Made by a program: the position numbers and the translations under genes. Below, one piece after another: positions 1,451-62,315 of a stretch of DNA of 64,000 nucleotides (positions are counted from its first letter, which is position 1; every line of letters begins with the position of its first letter). The notes under the pieces were generated by a model. It was given only the letters and a program-made list of their open reading frames with translations. It was not told the DNA's origin and searched no databases. Location of the stretch: positions 189,472,001-189,536,000 of the forward strand of contig OZ024743.1 of assembly GCA_964016885.1 (NCBI GenBank). The letters run 5' to 3'. The DNA comes from Eledone cirrhosa (lineage: Eukaryota).

Positions 1451-2793
1451 ACAGCCAAAACTCTGGCCTGACCTAGGTTTAGGGTTTATTATCTTCTCTT
1501 TCTTCTGATGTCTAATAGTCCTTGTTCTGTCCCTCCCCTTCTTCTCATTTATGGCATTTATAGTCCTTTACTTTACTTTCTTATACAGCCAGATCTGCCT
1601 TTCTTTGCCCCTTCCCCTTTTTTCATTACTTAATTTTGTTTTTATCTTTTTTAAATATTTCCATCATCTAAAATTCAACACAATACTGAAGAGATTCAGC
1701 TCAGATTGAAATACATATATGTGATTGGAATTCTATGATTTTTATTGTCTTTATTACTATGAACTAGATTTCATGTAATTCTACAGTTGAATTTTAATTA
1801 GTGTTATGAAATAGCTAAGTAAGAAATAAAGGGATCAACCAAGGATAAAATGGATAAAGCTTGTAGATAGAAATGCTTGTGAATTTTAAAACAAAAAGTA
1901 AATTTAATCAAATTCAATGATTCAGTTATGTTTTCAGACTTAAATTTAGAGATGTAGCAGTCTGAGTTGGCAATTGATGGAATTGTTAGTATCTGATTGA
2001 ATGCCTTGTGTTACCTGTTTCAGATCTTTGCCTTCTGAGTTCAAATTCTGTTAGGTGTCATTGGCCAAGGCTAATTCCTTTATCACAGGAACACCCAATC
2101 TCTCTTGAGAAAAAAGTCAGAATCACTCTGAGAAAAGAATCAGAGATGAAAAATATTTTAATATTTACATGTACACTGTCCAGATGTAGATGCTAAAATG
2201 TTTATCTCAGCTATTCAAAGATGAAATACCTGATTCAACCAAGGAAATGAATTTTCAGGAACATAATGAAAAATAAAATGAAATAAACAATGAAGCAAAT
2301 AAAGTGAAGAATAACAACAAAACAAGAAGCAACCCAGTTCCACTCCCAATATTTCTGCAATAACCATATTAAAGAAAAAGAGCAAAAGCAAAAGCAAAAA
2401 CAAAGATTAAAATTCTAACACTACAGTAGTTTTAAATCAATAGAAAATTAGTGATTTTAGCCAGCTGGACATAGGCTAAAGTTTACAGCTATTAAGTAAT
2501 TGAATCAAGATAAAAAAAGGTCAGCATAGATCTGAGAGAAAATCTAGATTCTTTGTGAGCCATCCACTTTATTGCAATCTAACAGCTAATCTGCCAGGCA
2601 GCTGAGGGGGCTAAAATATATGACTAAATTAGTATTGGTGCTCTGAAATAGCGATATATATATATATGAATGTATATATAGTGTATTTTACAATACACTG
2701 TATGCTTAATTAAAAGCATTTTGAAGACCTTACGCTATTGTTTTAGAGTAGTGACTATGTCACTTACTTCTTTTTTCAGCAAACAAAGGGAGA

Positions 2794-2841
2794 TAAGCTG
2801 ACAGATCTCTGTTTTGTACTCTTGGTACTCCTCAGAGCTTA
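2794..2841 (-). ncRNA. Type I hammerhead ribozyme (G12A variant), inverted copy
   Basis: Reverse complement of 2994-3041. Confidence 0.75.
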
Positions 2842-2993
2842 GTACTCCCTTTGCCTGCTGAAAATTATGAATGTTGCATTCTTAAAGAATTCCAGTAATA
2901 ATCAGGAACTGATTATACAGAGCGGTTGCCGGTCCAGCAAAAATTGAAAATAAGAATCCAACATTCATAATTTTCAGCAGGCAAAGGGAGTGC

Positions 2994-3041
2994 TAAGCTC
3001 TGAGGAGTACCAAGAGTACAAAACAGAGATCTGTCAGCTTA
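2994..3041 (+). ncRNA. Type I hammerhead ribozyme (G12A variant)
   Basis: taagct-CTGAGGA-gtac/caaga/gtac-AAAAC-agagatct-GTC-agctta. Perfect 6-bp stem I, extended by ttttcagcaggcaaagggag/ctccctttgtttgctgaaaa. GAAA is mutated to AAAA. Confidence 0.75.
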
Positions 3042-3199
3042 TCTCCCTTTGTTTGCTGAAAAAAGAAGTGACATAGTCACTACTCTAAAACAATAGCGTA
3101 AGGTCTTCAAAATGCTTTTAATTAAGCATACAGTGTTTTGCAAAATACACTATATATACATTCATATGACTAAATATATTGATTTCTTTTGGCAACACA

Positions 3200-8459: not shown

Positions 8460-10308
8460 CATTGACGAAGCTTTAGTATACGGCCAAGCTAGCGTGTATG
8501 CATAATCGGTCTGTAGCTTTAGCACTCAGATGAGGTAAGACCCCAGAGTAATAACGTTACGTTCAGACAGCTTAGCAGATCAGATATAGCAGTCGGCAGT
8601 CCGACCGCATTACCAGAGCAACGAAAATACAGGACCCAGGAAAAGATTTTTTACTGAACTGGACATAACGCTGAGGCTGAGTGTAAAATATATAACCCAC
8701 ATGGTGTATCCACAATATAGATCGCAATATCGCACGCAACATCAGCGCTAAGTTTCTGCAAATCCATTATCGACAAATTCCTATTGCAGGAGTGTGCAAT
8801 ATAATGGTTTTTGACGACAGAACATAGGATTTACTTCTTCAGCAAGTCTTTCGTTCTTAGCCAAAGCGGGTATGTTTAAACTTTAAAAGTCGGCACAGAC
8901 ACGTGGTTTTCTCTAAGGGAGGTAATCCCCGCTTAGGCGGTGTATTCTAATTTGAGATAAAGGAATGAATCCCCTTATACAAACCGAATAAAGCACTCGA
9001 CCAGAAGTTATCAAACACACTTAAACAATTAATTAATCAATAGAATCATCTAATAAAATTAATCAGTTAATCGTTAATTCTACCCGGATTCAACCCTTTC
9101 CCCACCACCAGGATACTAACAACCACTAACATCTCCTTCACCACACACACACTCATCCAAACACGCACGCACACACCAGTACACTACACTCCCTCCACCG
9201 TCCCCCACACCTTTTCTCTCCCTCTCCCCACCCCACCCATACCCCTTCACACACACACACATCCCACTAACACCCCATCCCCCACATGACCCCCTCCCCA
9301 CACCACCTTTACACCTACCCATCCTCTCCCCTGTCCACCGTACCTCCGCACACACTGACACACTGACTTTCTCCACCTGCCATTCTCCTCTACTGCTGCT
9401 ATGCCTTGACCGTCTGACCACTTCTCCGCACACACAGACAAACACCCCTCTCCACCTGTCATTCTCCTCTACCCTCATCCTGCATTGACCCTCTGACCAT
9501 TTCCTGTTGCGCGCACACCCCACATCTCCTCTCTTCCGACTAACACAACCTCGGATTACACACCATTGGCCATCGTTCCCACTATCTACTCCATCACATG
9601 GAAAATATCCGGCAACCCTTCACACCCTCGACGGAACTACATTTGGAACTTACCCACGGACATACACTAAAAAAACATTTTTTAGAACCACGCCACCTAC
9701 ATCCACAAAACGTATAAACACCACACACAAGTGCGTACCCCCACATATATACACACTCAGCCTCCGGAATCCTCTCTCTCTCCCCTGCCCCACCCCTACG
9801 ACCCCTCCCCATCCACCCGTACACACAAACCGACCTACACCCCACCCCATACACACACCTTTTCCTGAACATGGAACCTCGTTCTTCCCCCAACTCTCAC
9901 ATTCATATATACACACACACACACACGTACACCTACACACATACACCACCTTCAGCCCGCCCCGCTCGGACACCCCGCCTCCCTCTCCCCACTCAACCTG
10001 CCACCACCCCTACACGCCCCACACCCTTCCACCACTTGTTTATCTTCATGTTTATTTTTATTTTTATTTTTTTAATTTTTATTTGTACCCCTTCCACCGT
10101 TTTTCCACCCTTTCCTCTCCCCCCTTTTTTGTAAATGTCTCTCCTCCACTCCCCTACACACCCTCGGAACTATCTTCCCACCCACTTTTCGCCTGAAGAA
10201 GGGGTTATGCCCGAAACATCGTTCCCCGCCCCCCACTCTCAAGAGCGTGAAACTAATAAACCTTTGTTCGTACTGCCTCTCTGATTTGTTCCCGTTCCAT
10301 TTTTCACT
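8460..10308 (+). mobile_element. Decayed Penelope-like element (Naiad-like), 3' part with long CA-rich 3' UTR and terminal HHR
   Basis: Degenerate peptide remnants RNIARNISAKFL..IIDKF (~8720-8780) and NK..RPEVI (~8985-9012); C/A-rich UTR; HHR core at 10193; AATAAA at 10255; ends at (TA)n. Confidence 0.55.
10190..10223 (+). ncRNA. Minimal hammerhead-like core
   Basis: CTGAAGA-a-gggg/ttat/gccc-GAAAC-atc; stem I is weak. Confidence 0.55.
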
Positions 10309-12083: not shown

Positions 12084-12325
12084 GTCTTATGGTAGCTAGG
12101 ATGCGTCCATAGGCGGTATGCCGGTTGAGCACTCCATGCTCCTAGGGAGCAGAGTATTTATATATAAGGATTAGTGCTCTGAAATAGCGATGTATACATG
12201 AATGTATGTATAATATATTTGGCAATATACTGCATGTTTAATTAAAAACATTTTGAAGACCATGCGCTATCGGCTTTAAGTAGTGACTATGTCACTTACT
12301 TCTTTTCGGCGAAAGAAGGGAGAGT

Positions 12326-12367
12326 AGCTAGCAGTCTGTTTCATGCTGTTTGGTGATCATCAGAGCC
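12326..12367 (-). ncRNA. Degenerate hammerhead ribozyme (R1)
   Basis: ggct-CTGATGA-tcaccaaacagcat-GAAAC-agactgct-agct on the minus strand. Confidence 0.55.
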
Positions 12368-12735
12368 ACGCACTCCCTGCTTCCAACGAAAATTATAGAA
12401 GCTGGATTCTTATAGAATTCCAGTAATAATCATTGATTATACAGAGCGATTGCCGGTCTAGCAAAAATTAGGTATTAGGATTGGTGCTATAAAAGAAGTA
12501 AGTAACATAGTCACTACTTTGAAACCGATAGCGTATGGTCTTTAAAATGTTTTTAATTAAACATACAGTATATTGCAAATACATACATTCATGTAAACAT
12601 CACTATTTCAGAGCACCAACCTAATACCTAATTTTTGCTGGACCAGCAATCGCTCTATATAATCAGCTCCTGATTATTACTGGAATTCTATAAGAATCCA
12701 GCTTCTATAATTTTCAGCGGAAGCAGGGAGTGCGT

Positions 12736-12777
12736 GGCTCTGATGATCGCCAAACAGTGTGAAATAGACTGCTAGCT
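12736..12777 (+). ncRNA. Degenerate hammerhead ribozyme (R1)
   Basis: ggct-CTGATGA-tcgccaaacagtgt-GAAAT-agactgct-agct within a long flanking stem; positionally homologous to 2994-3041. Confidence 0.55.
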
Positions 12778-12856
12778 TCTCTCCCTTCTTTCGCCGAAAA
12801 GAAATAAGTGACATAGTCACTACTTTAAAACCGATAACGTATGGTCTTCAACATGT

Positions 12857-13728
12857 TCATCATCATCATCATCGTTTAACGTCTATCTTCCACGCTAGCA
12901 TGGGTTTAGACGGAAATTGTCCCACGTGAGGCAAGATTGGTTGTCTTGCTCGTATAGGACTGTCTGGCAGGTTTTCTACAGCTGGATGCCCTTCCTAACA
13001 CCAACCACATTTACAGTGTGGACTGGGCCGTTTTTACCGTATTACCTACACGGCCACATTACAGCGTGGACTGTGTTATTTTTTGTTGTGACACCTACAC
13101 GACCTTATTTATGTAGGACGGGATGTTGTGGTACCAACATAACTTTACAGAGAAAGGGGTGGTGTAGATAGGGTGGGGGTAGGGGTAGTGGGATGGGGAT
13201 GTGTTTTTGGTTAAGAGGTTCCTACTGACTAGGTTTCGTTTTGTACATAGGCAAGGCGGGTCTTCTGTATTACTGCGTAGCGCCAACGATCTCGGTCCAC
13301 TGACATTGTTTTGGAGAGGTGTAATGTGTAAGGTCGGGATTTATCAAATCGTCACAGGTTTTTCTGGGTCTGCCTACTCCGTAACTACCATCAATTTTGA
13401 TCGCCCTGCACTTTTTTATGCAGCTGTCGTCTTTCATGCGCATCACGTGACCATACCAACGTAGTCTTCTTTCAAGTAAACAGCATCTGATCCCTCTTAT
13501 TCCTAATTTCTCACTTAGATCATTTATGCTTTGCCGTTCACGTATATTACTATTACACATCCAACGGAGCATGCATGCTTCGTTCCTTTCCAGTCTAGGC
13601 AGGTCCTCTGGACGTAATGCCCATGTCTCACTGCCATGTAGCATTGCTGTTCGTATACAGGCATCATACAGTGTGCCTTTCATTTTTAGAGAGTAACCTT
13701 TAGCGGCCAATAATAAGCTCTCTGAACT
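12857..13728 (-). mobile_element. RTE LINE 3' fragment (C-terminal ORF + 3' UTR + (TGA)n tail)
   Basis: ORF 13270-13710: KGTLYDACIRTAMLHGSETW..RRLRWYGHVMR..GRPRKT. Confidence 0.9.
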
Positions 13729-13744
13729 TTATATATATATATAT

Positions 13745-13925
13745 CAACTAGAAATTGATTGACATATATATATAAAATAAACATATGAAACAATCACAGG
13801 GAATAATTTGTAAATTGTGTAAGCACACACAGCTAGGTAGGTAACGAATTAAAGTTTAACTAGAACTTCAAATATAGATACCTGTTAAAATGATTAATCT
13901 TCCTTGTATATATTTCATTATATAT
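13745..13925 (+). repeat. Unclassified dispersed repeat (second copy at ~40971-41116)
   Basis: aactagaaattgatt..acatat...atgattaa.cttccttgtatatat..catta at both loci, both in TA tracts. Confidence 0.65.
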
Positions 13926-13944
13926 ATATAGTGTGTGTGTTATT

Positions 13945-14145
13945 AAATGTCGTTGATGTTATGAAGATTAAGTAGTAGGATCGTGTCTAACTCCCCTCCC
14001 ACCCCTTCTTGGGGTTCCTTCACCCACTCTCCTGATGAAGGGCTTATGCCCGAAGCATCGCACCCACACATGCCACCCTCACTAAGCATGAACCTAATAC
14101 CATTTGTAACTTGTACTCCTGCGTTGTTGTTGTTTTTTATATTCC

Positions 14146-14150
<5 letters not shown>
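13945..14150 (+). mobile_element. PLE 3' terminus with HHR-like core (same family as 10190)
   Basis: CTGATGA-a-gggc/ttat/gccc-GAAGC at 14032-14056; ends in (TA)n. Confidence 0.65.
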
Positions 14151-14195
<45 letters not shown>

Positions 14196-14201
<6 letters not shown>

Positions 14202-14560
14202 GGAATATAAAAAACAATAATACCCCATACAAACTTTTAAAAATAATAATACCCCATACAAACTTCTTTGGAGGAAGCTTACTAGATCCACGCCATTCCG
14301 ACCGCAGAGCGGGAGTTGTGACCTCTGTTTACTGGAATGCCATGCCATAATACACTCTAAACTGAACGTGCTTAACAGGAAATCGGAAATTTTCTCCTCA
14401 TGCCAACACAAAATCCTGAGTTCCTTCTTCTATTTTAAACCTAGGACATAGACGTAACATGTATTACGCAACCCCCACCTAGACATACCCCTCCTTCACT
14501 ATAACCCCCCCAACCCATAACCCAGATAGATAGGTAGCCTATGGGTGGAACAGTCCCCTA
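14196..14560 (+). mobile_element. Naiad-like PLE C-terminal fragment preceded by an inverted 3' tail
   Basis: 14254-14415 reads PYKLLWRKLTRSTPFRPQSGSCDLCLLECHAII..LNVLNRKSEIFSSCQHK (CxLCxxE..LNxRxE..CxH motif); 14196-14220 is the reverse complement of 14126-14150. Confidence 0.7.
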
Positions 14561-15254
14561 CAAGGTTTGTGTTTGTGTCTGTGTGCGTGTGTATGTGTAT
14601 TCTCCTTTTCTCTCACACACACATACACACACACATATGTATGTATATGTGTGTGCATGTGTACATGCATGTCTGTGTATGTTGTATACATGTATATTAT
14701 ATATATATATGTATATGTATATTATATACATATATATTATATGTGTGTGTATATATGATATGTACATATATATATGTATGTATATGTATGTATACGTGTA
14801 TGCGTGTGTATGATATGTATATATGTGTGTATGTATATATATTTTTTCTGTAGAAGTCTTCTCTATATGTGGTGTTTGGCATGAATTCCTCCTATAATAC
14901 TCTTCTTTGAGAGGAGCACGATATGTAGAGTAACACATATTTATTGTCGCAGTTGAAACTAAGAACCACCACCCCTGCTGACCCAGATATTTACTGAGGA
15001 CCGGAACACCATTCTCCACAATATAAGAGAGGAATGCGCTTGCCGGACTATTGATGACCATAACATCACATTCCAAGGTAATGGCAAAACACAGTGAATG
15101 GTAAGCATGACCTGAATATCACAACATGCACATCGGAGCAACAGAGATATAATATCAATAAGCGAATCAGTTGAATTTTTTGAGTTGAAATACATATAAA
15201 TATGTGTCTGTGTGTATCGGACACACGTACACATGAAGAAACTGCTGACCTAAA

Positions 15255-16610
15255 TGTACCTGTCATGCCTGTCTGAATTCCCAAGAAAATGTTCGGTCAG
15301 TTACTATCTTGACCGCTTACCCTCACAATTACTACGTAGCGGCACTTGCACGTGACTGCTAGGCCCGGATGAAACGAAGACGAAGAATTTCCTTCCGTAC
15401 CGTTGTGTACCACAGATGCGATCTCACTCTGCCTCGTTAATGTTCAATCAACACCAAAGTTATACGTTCTGGGCAATAGAATTGAATCCAACCACCGACA
15501 ACATAGTTGGATGACCGATAATCACACCAAACCGGAGTACTGTGATCCTTGTGATTTCGAGATATACAACCACTGATAGTGTAACGAAGACCTGAAAACC
15601 ATACTCCATAATATTGAACCAAGTGATTGATTTATGCGACCAAAATAAAACCACACACATATTGGTTCGGCAATGAACTAGGAATATTGTATCCTCCGTC
15701 AATGTCTGGGTGAGCAAAAATAGATTCCTATCTGCATTGAAATTTACGAACTTGTGCATCTGCTGTGGTGTCAAACACAAACGCACACGACCGCACAGAT
15801 GAGCAATGGACCATGCCACGTGGGTTGAACTTGCAAGTGAATTGAAGGATGTGTAACTCTGATATACAGATTATTTATTATTAAGATGTATAAACTTGAC
15901 ATAACTATTATCATCTTATATTCTCTCAACTAATCACATTTTATTATATTTCTCTATCCCGTTTTCTCCCCCATATTTATAATATTTTTATTTGACAAAA
16001 TCGGTTTTTTACATTGTGTTTTTCCCTTCTAATACATGCTTATATTTTTTTATATATTCTCTATATATTTTTTATATATATATATTTTTTATCTTTATTC
16101 TTATTTTCACTCTTATCCTCCTTTATATTTTACCTTATTCTTACTTTTATACCTTATTATAGTGTAATCTTCCCCATGCCTTATACATTATTAATTATAG
16201 ATTATTATTATCACTCTTATCCCATTTCTAATTTCCTCATGTACTTTCTCCTCCGTTATATATATATTGTATGCCCTTTGTGTGTGTGTAGCCTCTGCAC
16301 ACCCTCTGCACCCTACTATCGACGCACCCCATCTATGGCTCCACTAACCACTCGACTCCCGGGAATGAATATGACAACAGCTAGTAAACAAGGACCAACA
16401 CCCCACCCTCCCGTACCAAAATTAGACTTATCGTCCCCTGCTTTTGCTCTTTACTCTCTAAACTCTTTGTTCTTGAATGTTTGGTTGGTAGAGTCCATAA
16501 CACCAATCAAACCACTTTTATAGATCTGACGAATCCTACGGTTACGTAAGGAAGAAACATTGTAAGCCAATAAAAAATCTTTTGATGTTGTAGACGCTCT
16601 TGTGTTCTTT

Positions 16611-16614
<4 letters not shown>
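15255..16614 (+). mobile_element. Decayed PLE 3' end (CxxC linker, GIY-YIG endonuclease, T-rich UTR, HHR), Neptune/Penelope-like
   Basis: Frameshifted remnants CHAC, TVVYHRC, LYV.G, NHR and EQW-TMPRGLN (~15800-15830); HHR and AATAAA at 16521-16574; then (TA)n. Confidence 0.55.
16521..16568 (+). ncRNA. Minimal type I hammerhead ribozyme
   Basis: CTGACGA-atcctacg/gtta/cgtaaggaa-GAAAC-att-GTA-agcc-AATAAA; stem I imperfect. Confidence 0.65.
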
Positions 16615-16668
<54 letters not shown>

Positions 16669-16963
16669 ATATTGCTCTGATTATTTAATTTATTAATTCT
16701 TCATTGAGCCACATCGTGAACGGTTGCCACATATATATATGTGACTTTATGTGTATGTAAATCTTTATATTTAATAATCTCCAGTTGGATTAAGATGCAA
16801 TTTGGGCGATATTGGGCTGCGCTTTCTAGCAACCAGCCTACTCGTCGCAAGCAACTAATCACATTCTTTCTAACTTGAACACTGCCACGTCACGATTCTT
16901 AGTCATTTTTTTAATCTATTTCTGGCGGGATCGCTTTGGAAAATTAACTGTCCTATTGAGTTT

Positions 16964-17040
16964 GTCTCCTGATGAGTTCGATACTCGAGATTTATCCTTA
17001 ATAGGATGCCTCAAAATACGAACGAAACCATGGTAGTGAT
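16964..17040 (+). ncRNA. Type I hammerhead ribozyme with extended stem II
   Basis: gtctc-CTGATGA-gttcg..(atcct taat aggat)..cgaac-GAAAC-catg-GTA-gtgat; palindromic ACCATGGT stem III. Confidence 0.7.
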
Positions 17041-17323
17041 TAACTAGGGTATTTACCCATTTCTTCTAACTTTAAATGTATACCTAATTGTGTATGTTTG
17101 ACGATATATTTGGTCAGTTTCTACATGCTGTTAAAATGTTGGGTAAATACTCTATTGTGGTCAACCGCGAAGAGGCTGCTTTCGGTTATTTATCAAATAT
17201 TTCTTCATAGGAGCCTTTATTCTTATAGCCTGGTCTAATTGATTTTTTATATGGTTAATTATGCTAATTGGGAGAGGAAATAGTATATATTTTATCTAAT
17301 AATTCTACTAAGGACATTATTTA

Positions 17324-17354
<31 letters not shown>

Positions 17355-17900
17355 CTAGCTGGCCCGTCCGGCTGGCGCACGGCTACTATTGGCATGTTCT
17401 GCAGCATCAATATATATATATATATATATATATATAGCTGACGTACCTAGCTTCGCTTGGATAAACAGATGATAAGCCATCTGTGTAGTATAGTATTACT
17501 GTTATAGTATAGTATTATTATATAGTATAGTATAATATTACTGTTGAAAATATATAGCATAGTTTTACTGTTGAAAATATATAGTATAGTATCACTGTTG
17601 AAAATATATACTATAGTATTACTGTTGAAAATATATAGTATAGTATTATTGTTGAAAATATATAGTACAATATTACTGTTGAAAATATATAGTACAATAT
17701 TACTGTTGAAAATATGTACACGAATATATAATTATATATTTATATATATAATTAATTAAAAGTTGGTTAGAAGCGAAGTCAATGCAGACAGGCAGACATA
17801 CAGACAGATATTATAAGCGGGCGACGTTATAGCTATGTATCTATCTAAACAGACAGAGTAAGAAAGAGAGAGGAATGTTGTATTATATATATTATATATA
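17355..17900 (-). mobile_element. Non-autonomous Helitron(s): two tandem 3' ends plus an internal minisatellite
   Basis: Minus strand gccgtgcgccagccggacgggccagCTAG|T (hairpin + CTAG) at 17355-17383; a second end ccaagcgaagctaggtacgtcagcta at 17435-17460; GTCT-type repeats at ~17785-17810; 5' part duplicated at ~18357-18478. Confidence 0.6.
17480..17715. repeat. 27-bp minisatellite (ttgaaaatatatagtatagtattactg), about 6-7 copies
   Basis: Direct observation; produces the LLLKIYSIV repeat ORF. Confidence 0.9.
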
Positions 17901-18086
17901 ATAAAGTACCAGTAATGTACTGGGATAATTGCTGGCCTTGTGCCAAAAGTAGAAACAATTATTCTTCTTTTTTATACAACTGTAAATAACTTGTTTATGT
18001 ATGTATATATATATACGTATAGATATGATTAAAGGAATGGTGTAATAAAATTTACAAATTAAACTGTCTCTTATTTATGATACTAA

Positions 18087-18117
<31 letters not shown>

Positions 18118-18226
18118 AGAATTAAAATACTAGAGTGTGTTGGAGTTAAACACCCTCTTCATATTATAGAAATGACAGTATAAGATATACCTCAATGTAA
18201 TTAAACAGAGCCGAAGAATTATAAAA

Positions 18227-18308
<82 letters not shown>

Positions 18309-18669
18309 TATATATATATAAATACACACACTATATATACATATATACACCCACAGATAGCGAAGTCATTGAATGGTTTTAATAATGCAGACATACAGAG
18401 GCATATTATAAGGGCGCAACATTATAGCTATGTATATATCTAAAAGACCGACTAAGAAAGAGAGAGGAATGTCGTATAACCGGAAGTGTTGACATTTGAA
18501 CATTTTAAAGAAGTGAATATTTAAATAATATCTTTAATCTTTTAACAAAATTTAGTAGACAACTTCTTACTTGGAAAGAGTTACATCTTTGGTGCCATTT
18601 GGTTCAGCTGTTTGACGAAAGGTTTGCTACGTACATACGGCTGCCAGCTTAATGAGTATAGATATATAT

Positions 18670-18774
<105 letters not shown>

Positions 18775-20114
18775 CACATATACATATATATATATACACA
18801 TATTATATATATATATATATACATATACACACATATATATACATATATATATACTATAAATGTACATATGGTAGATGCTTGACATGGCTGGGATGAATTA
18901 GAAGAAGCACTAATATAGCGTGATACTTAATGAATATGTATATGAATTTATATATGATTTGTTTATATATGTAAATCTATGTAAATCTTGCTATGAATGT
19001 TTTCATCTCAGTTGCTATGAATATTTTCAACTCAGTTGCTGTGTGAGAATGCAAGATATGTGTATTTCAGGATTTTAAAATCAGTGATATGCAAAATAAT
19101 GAAATTCTCCAGCAGATGTTTATATGCAAAAAGCATATAAGCTTTAGTTTATTCTTATCTCAGTACTGAGTGAGTTAACATTACTGAGGATTGCTTTAAA
19201 AAATCCTGAAATACTAGTGTCTCTCATTTCCACATGGCTATTGAAATAGCTGTGATATGATCACAGATTAAAATATACATCTAGAGACTTATACATTACA
19301 CAAATTGGGCTATTTTTTTAAGATGGTAGAGTGTGATTTGAGGGAGATGTTGCTGTTATTACAAACAAGATGTGTGATCACATAAAGCTCCCTAATTAGC
19401 TCAAAGTAGTGATAGTAAATCAATATTGTGAATGTGTTGAATGCATATTATCATGTGCTGCTGTTGGTGATGTTCTTTGATACTTTGTTAGCTCTAATCA
19501 GAAAGACAGCTTTATCTACTTGTGTGTATAGACCTGTAAATCTTGGTGGAATCATAAGGACATCACAGCACCATACTGCATTTCTAGGACATTTTACAGT
19601 TGGCAGAGCCCACTCACCTCCAGGTTTGAACACAACCAATTTCTTCCAGAGAAGGATAGGGAGAAAGGGATATAGTGGAAAAATCGACCCCAGTAATTAA
19701 ATGACACATTGTTATCGACATTGAAATGTAAAATTGAAGGCAGAATCAACCCCAGTACTGAACTGATACAATTTTATTAACATTAAAAGGCAAAGTTGAC
19801 TGTGTAGGGATTTGAACACAGAGACAGCAGAAAGCTGGAATGGGTTCCACAAAGCCTTCTATCTGACATTCTAATGATTCTACCAATTTACCACCTCCTG
19901 TCTATTTAAATCTATTTAAAACTACATTGTCCTATATGCTATTTCATTTTTGATGATGCTATGGCATGATTTAAGAGTTGTTTCTCTGCTATTTCTAGAA
20001 GGTAAAGTGACCAGTTAAAAACTGTGTATTTATTCATTGGTCGTAATAAAAGTTGAGATGAAGGTATTACCAAAATTCTATTCTTTTAATTTTCTTTTAC
20101 AATTTAGTTGATGC

Positions 20115-20206
20115 TATTGTTGTTGTTGTTCTTCTTCTTTTTCTTCTTCTTCTTCTTCTTCTTCTTCTTCTTCTTCTTCTTCTTCTTCTTCTTCTTCTTC
20201 TTCTTC
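20115..20206. repeat. (GTT)n(CTT)n microsatellite
   Basis: Direct observation. Confidence 0.95.
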
Positions 20207-20685
20207 CATATTAATAATAATATAATTGGAAGTTTTTTGATGTTTCCATTGGTTTTGATTTACAAAAGAACCTATGCTTAATTTAATAATTACTTGACTG
20301 AACATTTTCTCAGTTATTACTAAAGTTATTTGCTGATCTTTCAAATAATTTTCCACTTTATTCTGTTTTCATCTATTGGTGGTAATGTGGTGGTGATGGG
20401 AGTTGGTGATGGTTGGGTTACCAGAATTAGAAACAATACTGTACATGTAAGTTAGAAAGATTTTGCCAATAGATTTTTTAGAGCTATTTTTCACTCATAC
20501 CAATTTTATGTCTGTGCTTTAAGATTTCATTTGACCTAAGGTTTCTGAATTAGTTTTTGTTCTATTAGAAGTTCATTTTTACATTTGACGATAAAAATAT
20601 GACATTCATCATCATCATCATCATCACTGTTTTACATCTGTTCTTCCATGCTAGCATGGGTTAGATATTAATAACAATAATCATA

Positions 20686-20850
20686 ATAATTGTTTCTACT
20701 TTTGACACAAGGCCAGCAATTATCCCAGTTCTTTACTAGTACTTTATTTTATCGAAGGATGAAAGGCAAAGTTAACCTCGACGGGATTTGAACTAAAACC
20801 ATAAAGGGACGTAACTCTAAGCTGGACAGCATGGTGTCCGACCCTCTACC
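20686..20850 (-). mobile_element. SINE family A
   Basis: Homologous to the adjacent copy at 20867-21057. Confidence 0.8.
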
Positions 20851-20866
20851 AATACTGAATAATAAT

Positions 20867-21057
20867 TGTTTCTACTTTTTGGCACAAGGCCAGCAATTAC
20901 CCAGTGCATTACTGGTACTTTATTTTATCGACCCCGTAAGGATGAAAGGCAAAGTTAACCTAGGCGGGATTTGAACTCAGAATGGCAAGGGCCGTAACTC
21001 TATGCGTCAAAGCATGGCGTACGACCCTCTACCAATACTACCAATCCACCGCCCTTG
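20867..21057 (-). mobile_element. tRNA-derived SINE family A, full length, 16-bp TSD
   Basis: A box-like tggtagtattgg and B box gagttcaaatccc; aatactgaataataat duplicated at 20851-20866 and 21058-21073. Confidence 0.9.
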
Positions 21058-21683
21058 AATACTGAATAATAATGGTTTCTTATTTAGGCACAAGCCCAGC
21101 AATTTTGGGAAGAGAACAGCTAATTCCATCGATTGCAGTAGAAGTGATGGGGTGAGTTAGTGATATTAATGGTGTTAGTTGTGGAATGTACAGGTTTGTT
21201 CTGGCCATATTAGTGGGAGGTTAGTGAGGTTAGAGAGAAAAAGGAAGTGAGAAAGAGAGAAAAGTATTAACTCCAATATTAGACTGGTACTTTACATCAA
21301 CCCCAAAAGGATGAAAGCCAAAATTGACCTCAAAGGGATTTGAGAGCAGAGAGCCAGAATGAAAACCCAGAGCATTCTCCTATTATTCTAATGACTCTGC
21401 AAATTCGCTGCCTCCTTTCATTATATAAAGAAGCCAATTTTTAAAGCAGAGAAAAAGATCTGCATTGATCATGATTTACTCCCAAACAGTAGCAATGATT
21501 ATAAACACAATTGAAAACTGAGTATTAAAGTTTGGTACAAGTTTGACTATGAGACAAGGTCTTTGCAAATTGACTACTGTATTTCTTCCTCCCTGACAAC
21601 AGTGGTGTACATGGATCTACCAGAATTTCTTGCAGTATTAGTTTCTGAAGCATTGTGTGTTTTATACTTGTGATTTGCTGGGA

Positions 21684-21752
21684 CTACTCATCATCTTCTT
21701 CTTCAGAAGTGTCATTTCCTGAAGGGGTGCAGAACTCAGCACCAATAAATCC
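21684..21752 (-). CDS. Possible terminal coding exon of an unidentified host gene
   Basis: ctttatAG acceptor then GFIGAEFCTPSGNDTSEEEDDE*; unique sequence; no partner exons identified. Confidence 0.25.
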   Translation of the reverse strand, partial: GFIGAEFCTPSGNDTSEEEDDE

Positions 21753-23203
21753 CTATAAAGTTTAGAGTTATGTCACTTTTACAATAGTGTTGAGAGTTTT
21801 ATAAACTTTGTTATGAACACTGACCCCGAAACTAAGTAGAAATCACTAAACTCCTATCTGTTAGTCCGGTACTCTATTGACTTGGTAATATAAAATTGAT
21901 TAAACATAAGCCTAAATTCATTATAAACTAATGACTTTTCAATGAATATTTCGCAACACATTTAAGACCTTTTGGAAATCAAACTATTTATTCTTGGTTT
22001 ATTGATTTTTTTTTTTTTCTAAATGCTTTTTTTTTTCATTGTGAATAGAACCATTCTTTCTGATAAAACAACACTGTCCCTGTCCTTCCTTAAAAAAAGG
22101 CATATGGCATTTGGCAAATAGTTTTTAAGTTTTATAAATTATCTCACATTTTGTTGGCAAAAATTATTAGCGTTGATAAATGGAACAGTTATTCTCTGCA
22201 CAATAGCAAACTCATATTGATTTCAATTTAATATTCTAACAACTAGATTAGCCGATTATTTTTGATGCACTGTTGCTCTCTTTCAAAGAGATAATTTTAG
22301 TGAGGAAAAAAATGCAAAAACATACGAACAGAAACAATTCATGAGAAACCATAGAATTAAAAGTAGATAATAAAACGAAACCAACAGACAAGAGAAATAT
22401 AAAAGAACTGGTATATTTTCTCTTTAATGTATTTTTTAATTGTGCCTATAGTGATTGTTATTTGAGAAATTATTCAGTGATTTTTAGCGTATTAGCCATG
22501 GATTACTGTGAATTAAATTTACTTCATCTTGAATTGAGTGTAAAATGATGAAATTGGCAAATATCTCTTGTCAATTGACACATATATCATGTAACCTTGG
22601 AAATATCTGCAAGCTATAGTATTTGATCATTATGATTATAATCCTTTGATACAAATTTCTGCATTTAATGGAGCATTAAATCAAAATTTATGTGACTGTT
22701 ATTTCATTTGCAATATGGTGCCATTCCAGTTTTTGCTTGAAATTATGTCTAAACCATTTTAGTTTTGCAATAGAAAACTGAATTCAAATTCACAAAACAA
22801 TACTCTCATCACATTCTGTGAAGCCATACATAAGGTTCTGTTATACAGTCAGCTTCAAGTTGTGCACAAATTGTAGGCAGACCCCTACTCAGATATAAAG
22901 ACAAAATGAAATACAATATTGAACGTACTTCTTAACTCTTTTCAAGCCCTAAATGGTTATCTTAGAAAATGGAGAACATCTGATTATCCATTTTTGTAAT
23001 CTAAGATCTAACACCAAGATTTGGTCAAACATTCTAGCTTGTTTTGTTCAACATTTTGTCATCTGCACTACATTCAGTGCGATGTGTAAATCAGTAGTGA
23101 GACTGGTGTGCCATTTAAAGTTTAACCATAAAGAATCAACACAGAAGACTGTTGAACCTACATGCATGGAAATGGGCTGGAGAATCCATCACATATATAT
23201 CTA

Positions 23204-33961: not shown

Positions 33962-34074
33962 TTTAAAGTGCCCAGGACTTCCTCTCCTTTGAGCACATTA
34001 TTTACAGGGAACAGCGAGAGTCTATGGCTCATTAATGCATCGTGATACATATAAATATATATATACATATACGT

Positions 34075-34492
34075 AACAGAGAAGACCCGCCTTACCTAAA
34101 TACAAAGTAAAACCTACTAGTCAGTAGGCATCTCTATCAAAACACACCCCCGTCCCACCACCCCACCCCATCCACACCGCCCCCTTCAATGCAAAGTTAT
34201 GTTGGTGCCACAACATCCAGGCCGAAACAAACGAGATCGTGTAGGTGTCACGACAAAAAAAACACACAGTCCATGCTGTAATGTGGCCGTGTAGGCAACA
34301 CGGTAAAAACCTCCCAGTTCCACACTGTAAATGTGGTTCGTGTTAGGAAGGGCATCCAGCTGTAGAAAACCCGCCAGACAGTCCTATGCGAGCAAGACAA
34401 CCACTCTTGCCTCAAGTGGGAAAACCCCCGTCCAAACCCATGCAAGCGTGGAACAGGGACGTTAAACGATGATGATGATGATGATGATGATG

Positions 34493-34494
<2 letters not shown>
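34075..34494 (+). mobile_element. RTE LINE 3' UTR with (TGA)n tail
   Basis: Reverse-complement homolog of 12857-13270. Confidence 0.85.
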
Positions 34495-34535
<41 letters not shown>

Positions 34536-35589
34536 GATATACCACCATCATTATCATCATTGTTTGTATATATATATATATATATACATTGATAGAAAGG
34601 GGAGAAAGACAACTATGACAGCATACATATGATGATAAAATCTCTCTAAAGGTTACATGTAAGCTGTTGATGGGGGAAGAGTTTTTGTATAATTTTCTAA
34701 ATATTAGAAGATAGAAAGTCGAAAGAAAGAATGTAATGTAAATTTTTAGGCAGATGATGTGGATTAAATATGTAATAGAATTGAGGGAGAAAAAAATGAA
34801 ATGACAAATTAAATAATAAAATAAACCAAAACAAGAAAAGATTCCCGAACATTGAATATGAGTTAATTTGGAATGTAAAGGTGAGAATAAGATATTTTGG
34901 CAAATCTGCTGGAATGAATATGAAATTAATTTTATCATACTATTAGTTGAAATTCTTTTAGATTCACAAGAGATAATAAAGCACTAATTAATGGTACAGA
35001 AATTTCCAGATATATTGATTTTAAAAAGAAAATATATGATGTTATGACCTTGAAATAGTATTGCCTAACAGAAAAGTGCAGTAGAGTATTTGTTAAGGAC
35101 TAATTCTCCTGTTACTTAGGTCACACAGTTAAACACACACACATATATATATAGAACAAGAGAGGCTACGTAAGACAGTTGGTGCTTGGTAATATAAGTA
35201 TCTTTAGCATTATTATATTAATTTTGTTCTATAAGCTTTTTAAATGAATAAAACATTTACAAAAATATCTAAAACTGCTTCCATGGAGAAAGGTTATTGT
35301 ATAGGATATTCTAACTTCAGATAAATTTGCAACACACTCATTCTTCAACATCTGTTTCCATAAGAGGTAACCATGTGCTAGGCAATATTCTGGGGAACTA
35401 TCAGGAAGATCAGATTCTTGAGAATATTGAAAGTAAAGAGAAAAAGAATATGCTGTGGTGGGGGAATCTCCTTACTTCAATGTTGTACATTACTATGTTG
35501 GTTGCTGTAATGTGTTGCATAGCCCTATTTGACTTTTGTTTCTCTATCATTAAGGGATTCAGCTGAAGGATAAAAAAGATTTGGCGATG

Positions 35590-39000: not shown

Positions 39001-39615
39001 CATCATCATTATCATTATCATCATCGTTTAACGTCCGTCTTCCTTGCTAGCATGGGTTGGACGATTTTGTCCCACTTGAAGCAAGATTGGTTGGGAAACC
39101 ATGCTTCGCTCATACAGAACTGTTTCTGGCAGGTTTTCTATGGCTGGATGCGCTTCCTAACACCAACCAGATTTACAGTGTAGACTGGAAGCCTTTTTAC
39201 CATGTCTCCTACATGACCACTTTACAGTGTACACTGGGTGCCTTTCGTTGTGTCACCTACACAACCACGTTACAGTGGACAGAAGTGGGAGGAAGGAGTA
39301 GGGGTGTGAGGTGGGGTGTATATTGTGTTAAAGGTGCCTACGGACTATAGGTTTAAGCTTGTATGCAAGGGAAATCGGGTCTTCTGTATAACTGCATAGT
39401 GCCAAAGATTTCAATTCACTGACATTGTCTTAGAGAGGTGTAAGTGAGCAAGGCCAGTTTTTATCACCTCGTCCCACATTTTCTCTGTCTACCCACTCCG
39501 TAGCTTCCATCAATTTTTATCACTGCACTTTTTTATACAGCTGTTGTCCTTCATATGCATCACATGTCCTTACCAATACAATCTCCTCTTCTGCACACAA
39601 CATTTGATACCTCTA
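39001..39615 (-). mobile_element. RTE LINE 3' fragment
   Basis: Homologous to 12857-13500 and 60782-61350. Confidence 0.85.
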
Positions 39616-57294: not shown

Positions 57295-57671
57295 TAATAA
57301 TAATAAATTTGAAGACTAAAATCCAAAGAGGGCTCGATAAGGATAAATATATATCAAATATATAAGAACCGTAGAGCAAATATTTATTAAAATAACAGAT
57401 TAAAGTTTAAGCAAAGAATCGCTGCTTTCACCCTTAACGGGATCTTCTGAAACTATCAAAGTCAACCTGTAAACGCAGAGCTGGATATTTAAAAAAACGT
57501 TGCAACTGGAGGAAGACAGGAAGACGATATCGTCTTCCTGTCTTCCTCCAGTTGCAACGTTTTTTTAAATATCCAGCTCTGCGTTTACAGGTTGACTTTG
57601 CTAGTTTCAGAAGATCCCGTTAAGGGTGAAAGCAGCGATTCTTTGCTTAAACTTTAATCTGTTATTTTAAT
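57295..57671. mobile_element. Palindrome family P1: 286-bp zero-spacer hairpin (57386-57671) plus unpaired tail on the left
   Basis: Centre gacgat|atcgtc at 57528/57529; only one mismatch noticed between arms. Confidence 0.9.
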
Positions 57672-60781: not shown

Positions 60782-62315
60782 TCATCATCATCATCATCAT
60801 CACCGTTTACGTCCGTTCTTCCACGCTAGCATGGGTTAGACGGGTTGTCCTGTTGTGGGCAGTGTCTGGTCGGCTGACCATGCCTTGCTCATACAGGAAC
60901 TGATTTGGCTGGATTTCTACAGCTGGATGCCCTTCCTAACACCAACCTCATTTACAGTGAGTGCTGGGTGCTTTTTCGTGGCGCCTACACGTCCACTTTA
61001 CAGTGTGGGCTGGGTGCTTTTTTGCCGTGGCACCTCCACGACCATCTTGCGGTGGGAGGTGTGGGGGCATATTGTCTATATGCTTCAGCTTGTACCCATG
61101 GGAGGTCGGGTACTCTGTATTACTGCGTGACGCCAGAGGTCGCGGTCGTGTGTCATCGCCTTTGAGAGGTGTAATTGGGTAAGGTCGGCTTTTATCACCT
61201 CATCCCAGGTCATCATGGGTCTCCCCACTCCGCGGTTTCCATCAACTTCTAGTGCTCTGCACCTTTTTATGCAGCTGTCATCCTTCATACGCATCACATG
61301 TCCATACCAGCACAACCGCCTCTCCTGCACACAGCATTTGATTCCCCTTATGCTCAGTCTCTCTCTCAATTCATTTATGCTTTGTCGTTCACGTATATTA
61401 CTGTTACACATCCATCGTTTCTCTCTAATCTTCGTAAGTCTTCCACCTTCAGCGCCCAGGTCTCACTACCATGCAACATTGATGTTCGGATACACGCATC
61501 ATACAGTCTGCCTTTCATTCTGAGGGAGAAGCCTTTTGCAGCTAGCAGTGGTAGTAGTTCCCTAAACTTCTTCCATCCCGTTCTTACCCTAGTTATTGTA
61601 CTTTCTGAACACCCACCTCCGCTGCTAATTCGGTCACCTAGTTAGCAGAAGCTGTCTACTGTTTCTACAGAGCCCTCCCAGAGATTGGTGGTACTTGTTT
61701 CCTGTGGCTGTTTGCTGCTTGCTGTCCCAGCACAGCTGCTGCATGTGAAGTCTACATTCTTAATTAAGCTTCCTGAGATCCCTCTACATCTCTTGTGTAC
61801 CCATTGTTTGCATTTGGGGCAGAGAATGGAGTTCCTACCTACACCTTTCCTACATACTGAGCAAGGCCATTTCCCTGAGGGGATCTGGGTTCTGTTTTCT
61901 CGTCTACCTACAAGGACCTTAGTCTTTGTCATGCTGACTTTGAGACCCTTTCTTTCTAGTCCCTGCTTCCAAGTTTGGAATTTATTCTCTAGTTCTACCA
62001 TAGATTCAGCTATGAGTGCGAGATCATCAGCATACAGGAGTTCCCATGGGCATACGGTCTTAAACTCCTCCGTTATTACCTGCAGGACTATGATGAACAG
62101 GAGGGGGCTAAGAACAGAGCCCTGGTCGACCCCAACCTGTACGCTAAATTCCTCGCTATACTCATTGCTAATCCTAACTTTGCTGACTGCTCCCCTATAC
62201 ATGGCTTGTACCACTTTCACAAGCCATTAATCTACTCCTAGTTTTCTAAGAGCCCACCAGATTACAGCACGTGGAACTCTGTCAAAGGCTTTCTCAAGGT
62301 CGACAAATGCCAAGT

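Follow-up and report, generated by a model that had tools for sequence, protein, structure and literature searches.

A decayed head-to-head hammerhead repeat in Eledone cirrhosa and the likely mobilisation of its family by a Penelope-type enzyme

Two copies of a short repeat without an open reading frame (ORF) lie 5' end to 5' end in the genome of Eledone cirrhosa, and each runs more than once around its own unit. The question raised by this locus is which template was copied, and by which enzyme, to give such a pair. The window analyzed is a stretch of 64,000 nucleotides (contig OZ024743.1, forward strand, 189,472,001 to 189,536,000). The first-pass annotation of the window had read the locus as a circularly permuted monomer with one hammerhead ribozyme, a candidate retrozyme made by reverse transcription (RT) that went more than once around a circular RNA and then inverted. 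Judged from its sequence, the element is a decayed member of a family of mobile 315-base repeats that encode no protein and carry a hammerhead motif, and it is likely a non-LTR retrozyme mobilised by a Penelope-type element (PLE).

The head-to-head pair in the window

Alignment resolved the locus into two arms of one ORF-less 315-nt unit, spanning window positions 12164-12857; its left boundary, earlier placed at 12171, was moved to 12164. The features, together with those of two neighbouring repeats, are given below.

12164-12488, minus strand: minus arm, from unit position ~153 through the cleavage site to 166; its outer end is a 3' end of the long, tailed class (T), beyond which comes a short (AT)n
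12164-12197, minus strand: 34-nt tail, delimited by the two 3' end sites that hold throughout the family (133 and 167 nt past the ribozyme cut), placed by end-site mapping and sequence
12316-12377, minus strand: type I hammerhead motif, with cleavage predicted between 12330 and 12329; 16.1 is C and two pairs of stem II are disrupted, so that no activity is predicted
12489-12490, no strand: head-to-head junction, two extra bases outside both arms
12491-12857, plus strand: plus arm, from unit position ~23 through the cleavage site to 83; natural 3' end missing
12726-12787, plus strand: type I hammerhead motif with its core at 12740-12773 and cleavage predicted after 12773; 16.1 (12772) is C, and activity is predicted to be weak or absent
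12797-12857, plus strand: second-round repeat of 12491-12551, 90% identical (55/61)
12858-13730, no strand: unrelated dispersed repeat outside the element, starting with (CAT)n; 83-89% identical over about 900 nt to loci L068 and L075
2628-3165, no strand: second head-to-head locus, of subfamily A', about 80% identical to the pair described here; one T end and one short (S) end

Two observations of the first-pass annotation were borne out by the alignment: the plus arm continues through the sequence that closes the minus arm, and its start recurs at a distance of 306 nt. The recurring stretch measures 61 nt. The minus arm is redundant with itself by about 14 nt. Complementarity between the arms is 90-94%, and they differ at 22 of 301 columns. 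With a single CTGATGA..GAAA motif in each arm and a longest internal ORF of 47 codons, the earlier description of one hammerhead per unit and no ORF also holds. The proposed monomer length of ~306-310 nt was right for the period of the plus arm but not for the family unit, which is 315-316 nt; the 306-nt period results from deletions of 8 and 1 nt in the plus arm. This arm breaks off at unit position 83, where it abuts the repeat that begins at 12858, so that its 61-nt redundancy is a cut-off remnant. The (CAT)n-led repeat probably truncated it, and the missing end was not found in 12858-22000. The locus has one T end and one unclassed end.

Both window motifs carry C at position 16.1. In the genome, exact matches to the 17-nt ribozyme motif of the family number 1,125 with T at this position and 16 with C, and contigs from three runs of one sample read T at window position 12772 almost without exception. 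Because U16.1C is present in both ribozymes, the window copy is probably a dead member of its family with inactive ribozymes. An Rfam scan of the window returned no hammerhead match among 87 other matches. In a relative, L229, both motifs are intact; they give weak matches to Hammerhead_HH9, with E of 0.0006 and 0.006 and scores that fall short of the gathering score.

Several other repeats were noticed in the window. In the subfamily A' pair at 2628-3165, core position 12, which lies in a CpG, is A in both arms where most relatives keep G; this subfamily has 2,378 candidates in the genome. Motifs of the form CTGA-GA..GAA(A/G) with a common stem II-like sequence occur at 10193 (plus), 10601 (minus), and about 14033 (plus), and possibly mark another hammerhead-bearing repeat. 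Perfect or near-perfect palindromes at 57477-57580, 14120-14227, and 34476-34559 are probably other head-to-head mini-insertions. The (CAT)n-led repeat has a very high copy number and is also found at 34073-34483, 39011-39614, and 60789-61542.

Ends of family A and the likely link to Penelope-type elements

The family of the window element, here called family A, consists of thousands of dispersed copies in the 3.0-Gb genome (4,105 candidates at first look). The 315-nt unit has a GC content of 37.3%, and 84 units lie a median of 5.6% away from the column majority, a divergence that marks the family as old. A set of 30 loci picked for covering the query was biased in its ends; the counts of ends therefore refer to 80 other loci, which follow the order of the genome and come from the first 100 matches listed. 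In this set 34 loci were head to head, 44 had one outer 3' end (one arm), and 2 had none. Of the 112 outer 3' ends, 89 could be classed, 48 as short (S) and 41 as long (T). The exact end sites are 133 and 167 nt past the cut site, both end in AT and join (AT)n, and the 3' flank was TA-rich past the aligned end in 69 of the 112 cases. The 48 outer 5' ends were scattered over the whole unit. The circular permutation claimed for the element was therefore found for the 5' ends but not for the 3' ends, which keep to two sites with 34 nt between them.

A larger head-to-head set (n = 81) was drawn from the 80 loci and 82 chosen otherwise; 37 of the 81 had an unclassed end. Where both ends were classed, 41 of 44 loci had one S and one T end, two had SS, and one had TT (p 8e-10). 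Because both outer ends are 3' ends, i.e. starts of synthesis, and are of one kind each, the joining of two primed cDNAs fits better than the single inverting reverse transcription proposed at first. Units of one locus shared rare variants 6-9 times more often than units of different loci, with 0.30 shared variants per 100 columns between tandem units and 0.46 between inverted units, compared with 0.05 between loci. Among 89 arms, 9 extended beyond the second (upstream) cut site, and no pile-up of 5' ends at that site was seen. Terminal and upstream rounds showed a position-specific difference in 1 of 165 columns, which was the junction itself. Long arrays are rare in family A. There were 41 two-motif matches, two of them an unrelated minisatellite, and none except that minisatellite was chained; tandem runs measured 808 and 1,103 nt, the latter being the longest.

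The features of family A (34-nt tail, 5' truncation, partial tandems, inverted 5' copy, and (TA)n targets) are of PLE type. For PLEs the available text of the sources gives 5' truncation, partial tandems, an inverted 5' copy, a tail of 30-40 bp at one end, and a bias for (TA)n (PMC8557442, PMC3846280). The PLE protein is described as cutting and extending both target strands and starting at two internal RNA sites, with the tail as the stretch between them (PMC11167929). EN+ PLEs as described in these three sources thus have in common with family A the one-end tail, the inversion, the 5' truncation, the AT-rich target, and, in PMC11167929, internal RT starts downstream of the hammerhead. The families described here differ from them in that the RT-GIY-YIG ORF is absent, in arms of many units, and in the form of their hammerheads.

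The genome is rich in RT-GIY-YIG elements. A young-looking autonomous PLE, L121 (G000:C1:145869800-145877000), has an open frame of 938 aa with RVT_1 and GIY-YIG; it and its relatives have two 3' ends ~68 nt apart, with one of each in inverted loci (11 loci, judged by eye). No hammerhead was found in L121 by motif scan, and it was rejected as the partner of family A because of its 68-nt tail versus 34 nt. No sequence shared with the unit was found in 50 PLE loci, out of 150 listed GIY-YIG loci (10,595 candidates). Another PLE family (L124, L125, L128, and L135) carries a minimal hammerhead that lies some 380 nt past its ORF.

A PLE-like match was present near 8 of 162 loci of the repeat, in each case at least 297 nt away, and the nearest two were separated from it by (TA)n and other sequence. 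L092, a candidate for a PLE-joined copy, was rejected as a separate insertion 658 nt beyond the PLE ORF, and the ORFs near L078, L036, and L030 were rejected as belonging to the element because they are not joined to it. With no RT-GIY-YIG ORF joined to the repeat at any of the 162 loci, a plain pLTR or an autonomous PLE was rejected, in agreement with the first-pass annotation. The PLE-type ends, combined with the lack of PLE coding sequence within 297 nt, point to PLE cargo and not to a pLTR. An LTR-internal-LTR layout was not seen at any mapped locus of family A or of the sister family C described below. Other short inverted repeats were encountered along the way. The element at L078:2158-2424 is common beside family loci in (TA)n, and a third hammerhead family, B (L003, L016, L022, L041, L126, L130, L138, L180, and L226), consists of short head-to-head copies in (TA)n, with a stem II that resembles that of family C.

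Unit haplotypes in the sister family C

Beside L147 and L164 a sister family, C, was found with a 310-nt unit of GC content 34.5% that is 68% identical to family A. A pattern search gave 15,017 exact 21-mer matches, laid out as minus-then-plus arrays, and 1,006 exact matches to the T-end junction. The sample comprised 57 regions, 17 from the first matches and 40 picked by their T end. Of the 46 complete two-armed loci, 45 had S and T ends and one had T and an unclassed end; neither SS nor TT occurred. All 33 complete two-armed loci among the 40 picked by T end carried S at the far end. Arms ranged from 33 nt to about 7.4-7.5 kb or more, with arrays of 24 or more units; L305 (G000:C1:5388700-5392656) is a two-armed array of near-identical units. 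Most loci were 98-100% identical to the reference unit, which makes the family very young, and it may still be active.

Haplotypes were compared in the 43 loci with at least three units, and substitutions were counted at positions covered by at least three units. There were 21 distinct haplotypes, each fixed through all units of its locus. Of 23 distinct all-unit changes, 12 were private to one locus and 11 of these 12 were present on both strands; private changes were found in 14 of 14 and up to 18 of 18 units. Single-unit events numbered 54. The other arm covered the same rank for 25 of these, and none of the 25 was shared. Eight changes formed subset patterns: one was a rank-matched variant (L340), one a mosaic of two haplotypes (L331), and six were in the three longest arrays (L321, L322, and L344), which have periodic variants of local duplication. 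In L331 one arm agrees over its full length with the inner units of the other, which suggests a template switch or two templates.

A private change in every unit of both arms requires that a unit-length template was copied many times, and supports the circle assumed in the first-pass annotation. Its retrozyme reading thus stands for the type of unit and, strongly in family C, for repeated copying of a unit-length template. The cut site was read through 467 times in family C with 4 non-shared variants nearby and no added bases; this fits a closed circle or a precise jump across a nicked one. At the inversion junctions an overlap of at least 2 nt was present in 27 of 37 ungapped cases, compared with 18% at random (these are BLAST overlaps, in which mismatches are possible), and 9 of 46 junctions had a gap. 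The overlaps match an annealing of two cDNA ends. The strongest data come from a family that is 68% identical to that of the window, and they carry over to family A in part.

Template, mechanism, and rival explanations

The hammerhead motif of family A is canonical, of a Schistosoma/coral-like kind, with an internal loop in stem I; that of family C is minimal with a palindromic stem III. Among 15 natural units drawn from families A, A', and C, both partners are altered in 6 of the 10 hammerhead pairs, and 89.6% of cells pair versus 19-45% with the partners slid, where the sequences are related and shuffle counts do not equal probabilities. None of the 23 all-unit substitutions of family C falls in the 11 core positions (about 0.8 expected, alone not significant). 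The covarying stems, together with the sparing of the core in family C, indicate that the ribozyme is under selection. Folded singly, the four hammerhead stretches did not surpass their shuffled versions (z +0.3 to -1.4). When whole units were folded as circles, z ranged from -4.1 to -5.4, with 60 shuffles per stretch, for five stretches of which two start with a little junction sequence. In family A, variants shared within a locus fall in the core 6 times versus 4.0 expected, so the core is not avoided, and L086, like the window locus, has U16.1C in both arms. The U16.1C shared by the window arms and the unavoided core of family A are hard to square with a self-cleaving template unless gene conversion took place. 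Either early gene conversion or a cleavage-independent template would explain the shared core variants.

We consider it probable that a borrowed PLE RT-endonuclease started simultaneously at two constant sites of an RNA one unit long, likely a circle, and copied it. Somewhat more guardedly, we favour a double rolling-circle reverse transcription, in which a PLE dimer would prime both (TA)n strands at two sites 34 nt apart on one ribozyme-made circle, and both RTs would roll for up to 20 or more turns before the products are joined head to head. From the observed anatomy and counts we infer the steps of cleavage and ligation, the partner protein, and the sequence in which events followed each other. 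The hammerheads would cut a multimeric transcript to unit-length RNA, and the unit would close to a circle, covalently or via stem I. The PLE protein dimer would then nick both strands of a (TA)n target, with one strand primed at 133 and the other at 167. Each RT would roll around the unit over a variable distance, and the two cDNAs would meet head to head, in many cases through short stretches of complementarity. Some results count against this scheme. No partner was found in the 50 PLE loci, and long arrays are rare in family A. The L331 mosaic, the rank-matched variant in L340, and the periodic arrays L321, L322, and L344 are adverse, as is the in vitro behaviour of an anole PLE, for which uncleaved RNA is described as the main substrate and the ribozyme as dispensable (PMC11167929).

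The same PLE and the same start sites might have acted on a linear cleaved monomer, or on a pool of monomers from one source locus, with the RT jumping from the 5' to the 3' end and no covalent circle. Such jumping predicts the same all-unit haplotypes and could give the two-haplotype mosaic of L331, and by sequence logic the two ends of a monomer are kept together by stem I when the hammerhead is of type I. We nevertheless regard it as unlikely, since among 467 read-throughs of the cut site there were just 4 non-shared variants and no base had been added, a single haplotype makes up nearly every array though at least 21 haplotypes exist, and animal retrozyme monomers are largely circular in the available text of PMC7229834. 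An uncleaved linear multimer or read-through transcript, with arrays inherited from source arrays and the ribozyme a passenger at copying, would agree with the substrate preference of the anole PLE, with U16.1C in both arms of the window locus and of L086, with the unavoided core in family A, and with the variant in L340. It would place a new source mutation at the same rank in both arms; instead, 12 all-unit changes were private, 0 of 25 single-unit events were shared, and one variant was rank-matched. Moreover, one unit would be lost per generation, yet arms of 7.5 kb or longer occur in family C, and we judge this template slightly less likely again than the linear monomer.

Later events at the DNA level, by which short PLE-type insertions were expanded or homogenised through tandem duplication, DNA circles, or gene conversion between arms, would account for the periodic variants in L321, L322, and L344, and conversion could explain the shared core variants of the old family A. 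The very young family C, however, has private variants fixed in both opposite arms, 54 single-unit events persist there, so that homogenisation is not general, and the hammerhead stems covary; we hold an origin of this kind to be improbable. An inverted repeat is also the form of a TIR MITE or another DNA transposon, a reading that we credit with next to no probability. The inversion point varies, 44 of 80 loci are one-armed, the outer ends are unequal and differ by 34 nt, and the arms are tandem arrays with a covarying ribozyme. The double rolling-circle scheme remains our preferred reading.

Family A shares with the metazoan non-LTR retrozymes of Cervera and de la Pena (2020), as the available text presents them, an ORF-less low-GC unit of 150-450 nt, one type I hammerhead, tandem copies, and co-existence with PLEs (PMC7229834). 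As in axolotl HHR_Amex2, stem II has a UU mismatch at its base (PMC7229834). That source describes head-to-tail repeats, circular RNAs shown in coral, mussel, and axolotl, and RT of the circle by a PLE as a proposal only; the present families are known from genome sequence alone, and combine two-armed head-to-head arrays with 3' ends at two constant sites, a tail of 34 nt, insertion at (TA)n, and haplotypes that hold throughout a locus. A 2026 preprint, in the text available, concludes on the same partner class, with retrozymes as non-autonomous PLE derivatives, and does so from co-occurrence and pLTR homology, favouring local tandem amplification (bioRxiv 10.64898/2026.07.22.740005). No pLTR homology was found here, and the link consists of the end anatomy and the haplotype pattern. 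MRC1 and other non-autonomous Chlamys PLEs are likewise PLE cargo forming multicopy head-to-tail insertions, but they are algal, have 3' sequence in common with autonomous partners, and are mostly without canonical hammerheads as far as the available text goes (PMC8557442, PMC9940879). In the non-subscription literature no earlier account was found of retrozyme arrays with two arms, of a count of the one-of-each rule, or of a haplotype test like the present one, a point on which the supplement of PMC7229834 may bear, and no paper was found that joins Penelope with 'rolling-circle reverse transcription'. Retrozymes and their circles are already published; as far as that literature goes, the two-armed arrays, the one-of-each rule as a count, and the haplotype test appear to be new.

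The window copy is merely a decayed member, and the interest of the finding rests on the evidence from its families, in which genomic support for the mechanism is unusually direct. In the available text of earlier work, RT of animal retrozyme circles by a PLE enzyme is only proposed, and the mobilisation step and the origin of tandem-inverted PLE copies are left open (PMC7229834, PMC8557442, bioRxiv 10.64898/2026.07.22.740005). With about 15,000 young 310-nt units, family C offers countable predictions, namely one start of each kind per insertion and one haplotype per locus. Its unit is a minimal template for work with PLE proteins in vitro and likely the best experimental substrate. If true, double rolling-circle reverse transcription would explain the spread of retrozymes as well as the tandems, inversions, and one-sided tails of PLEs generally.
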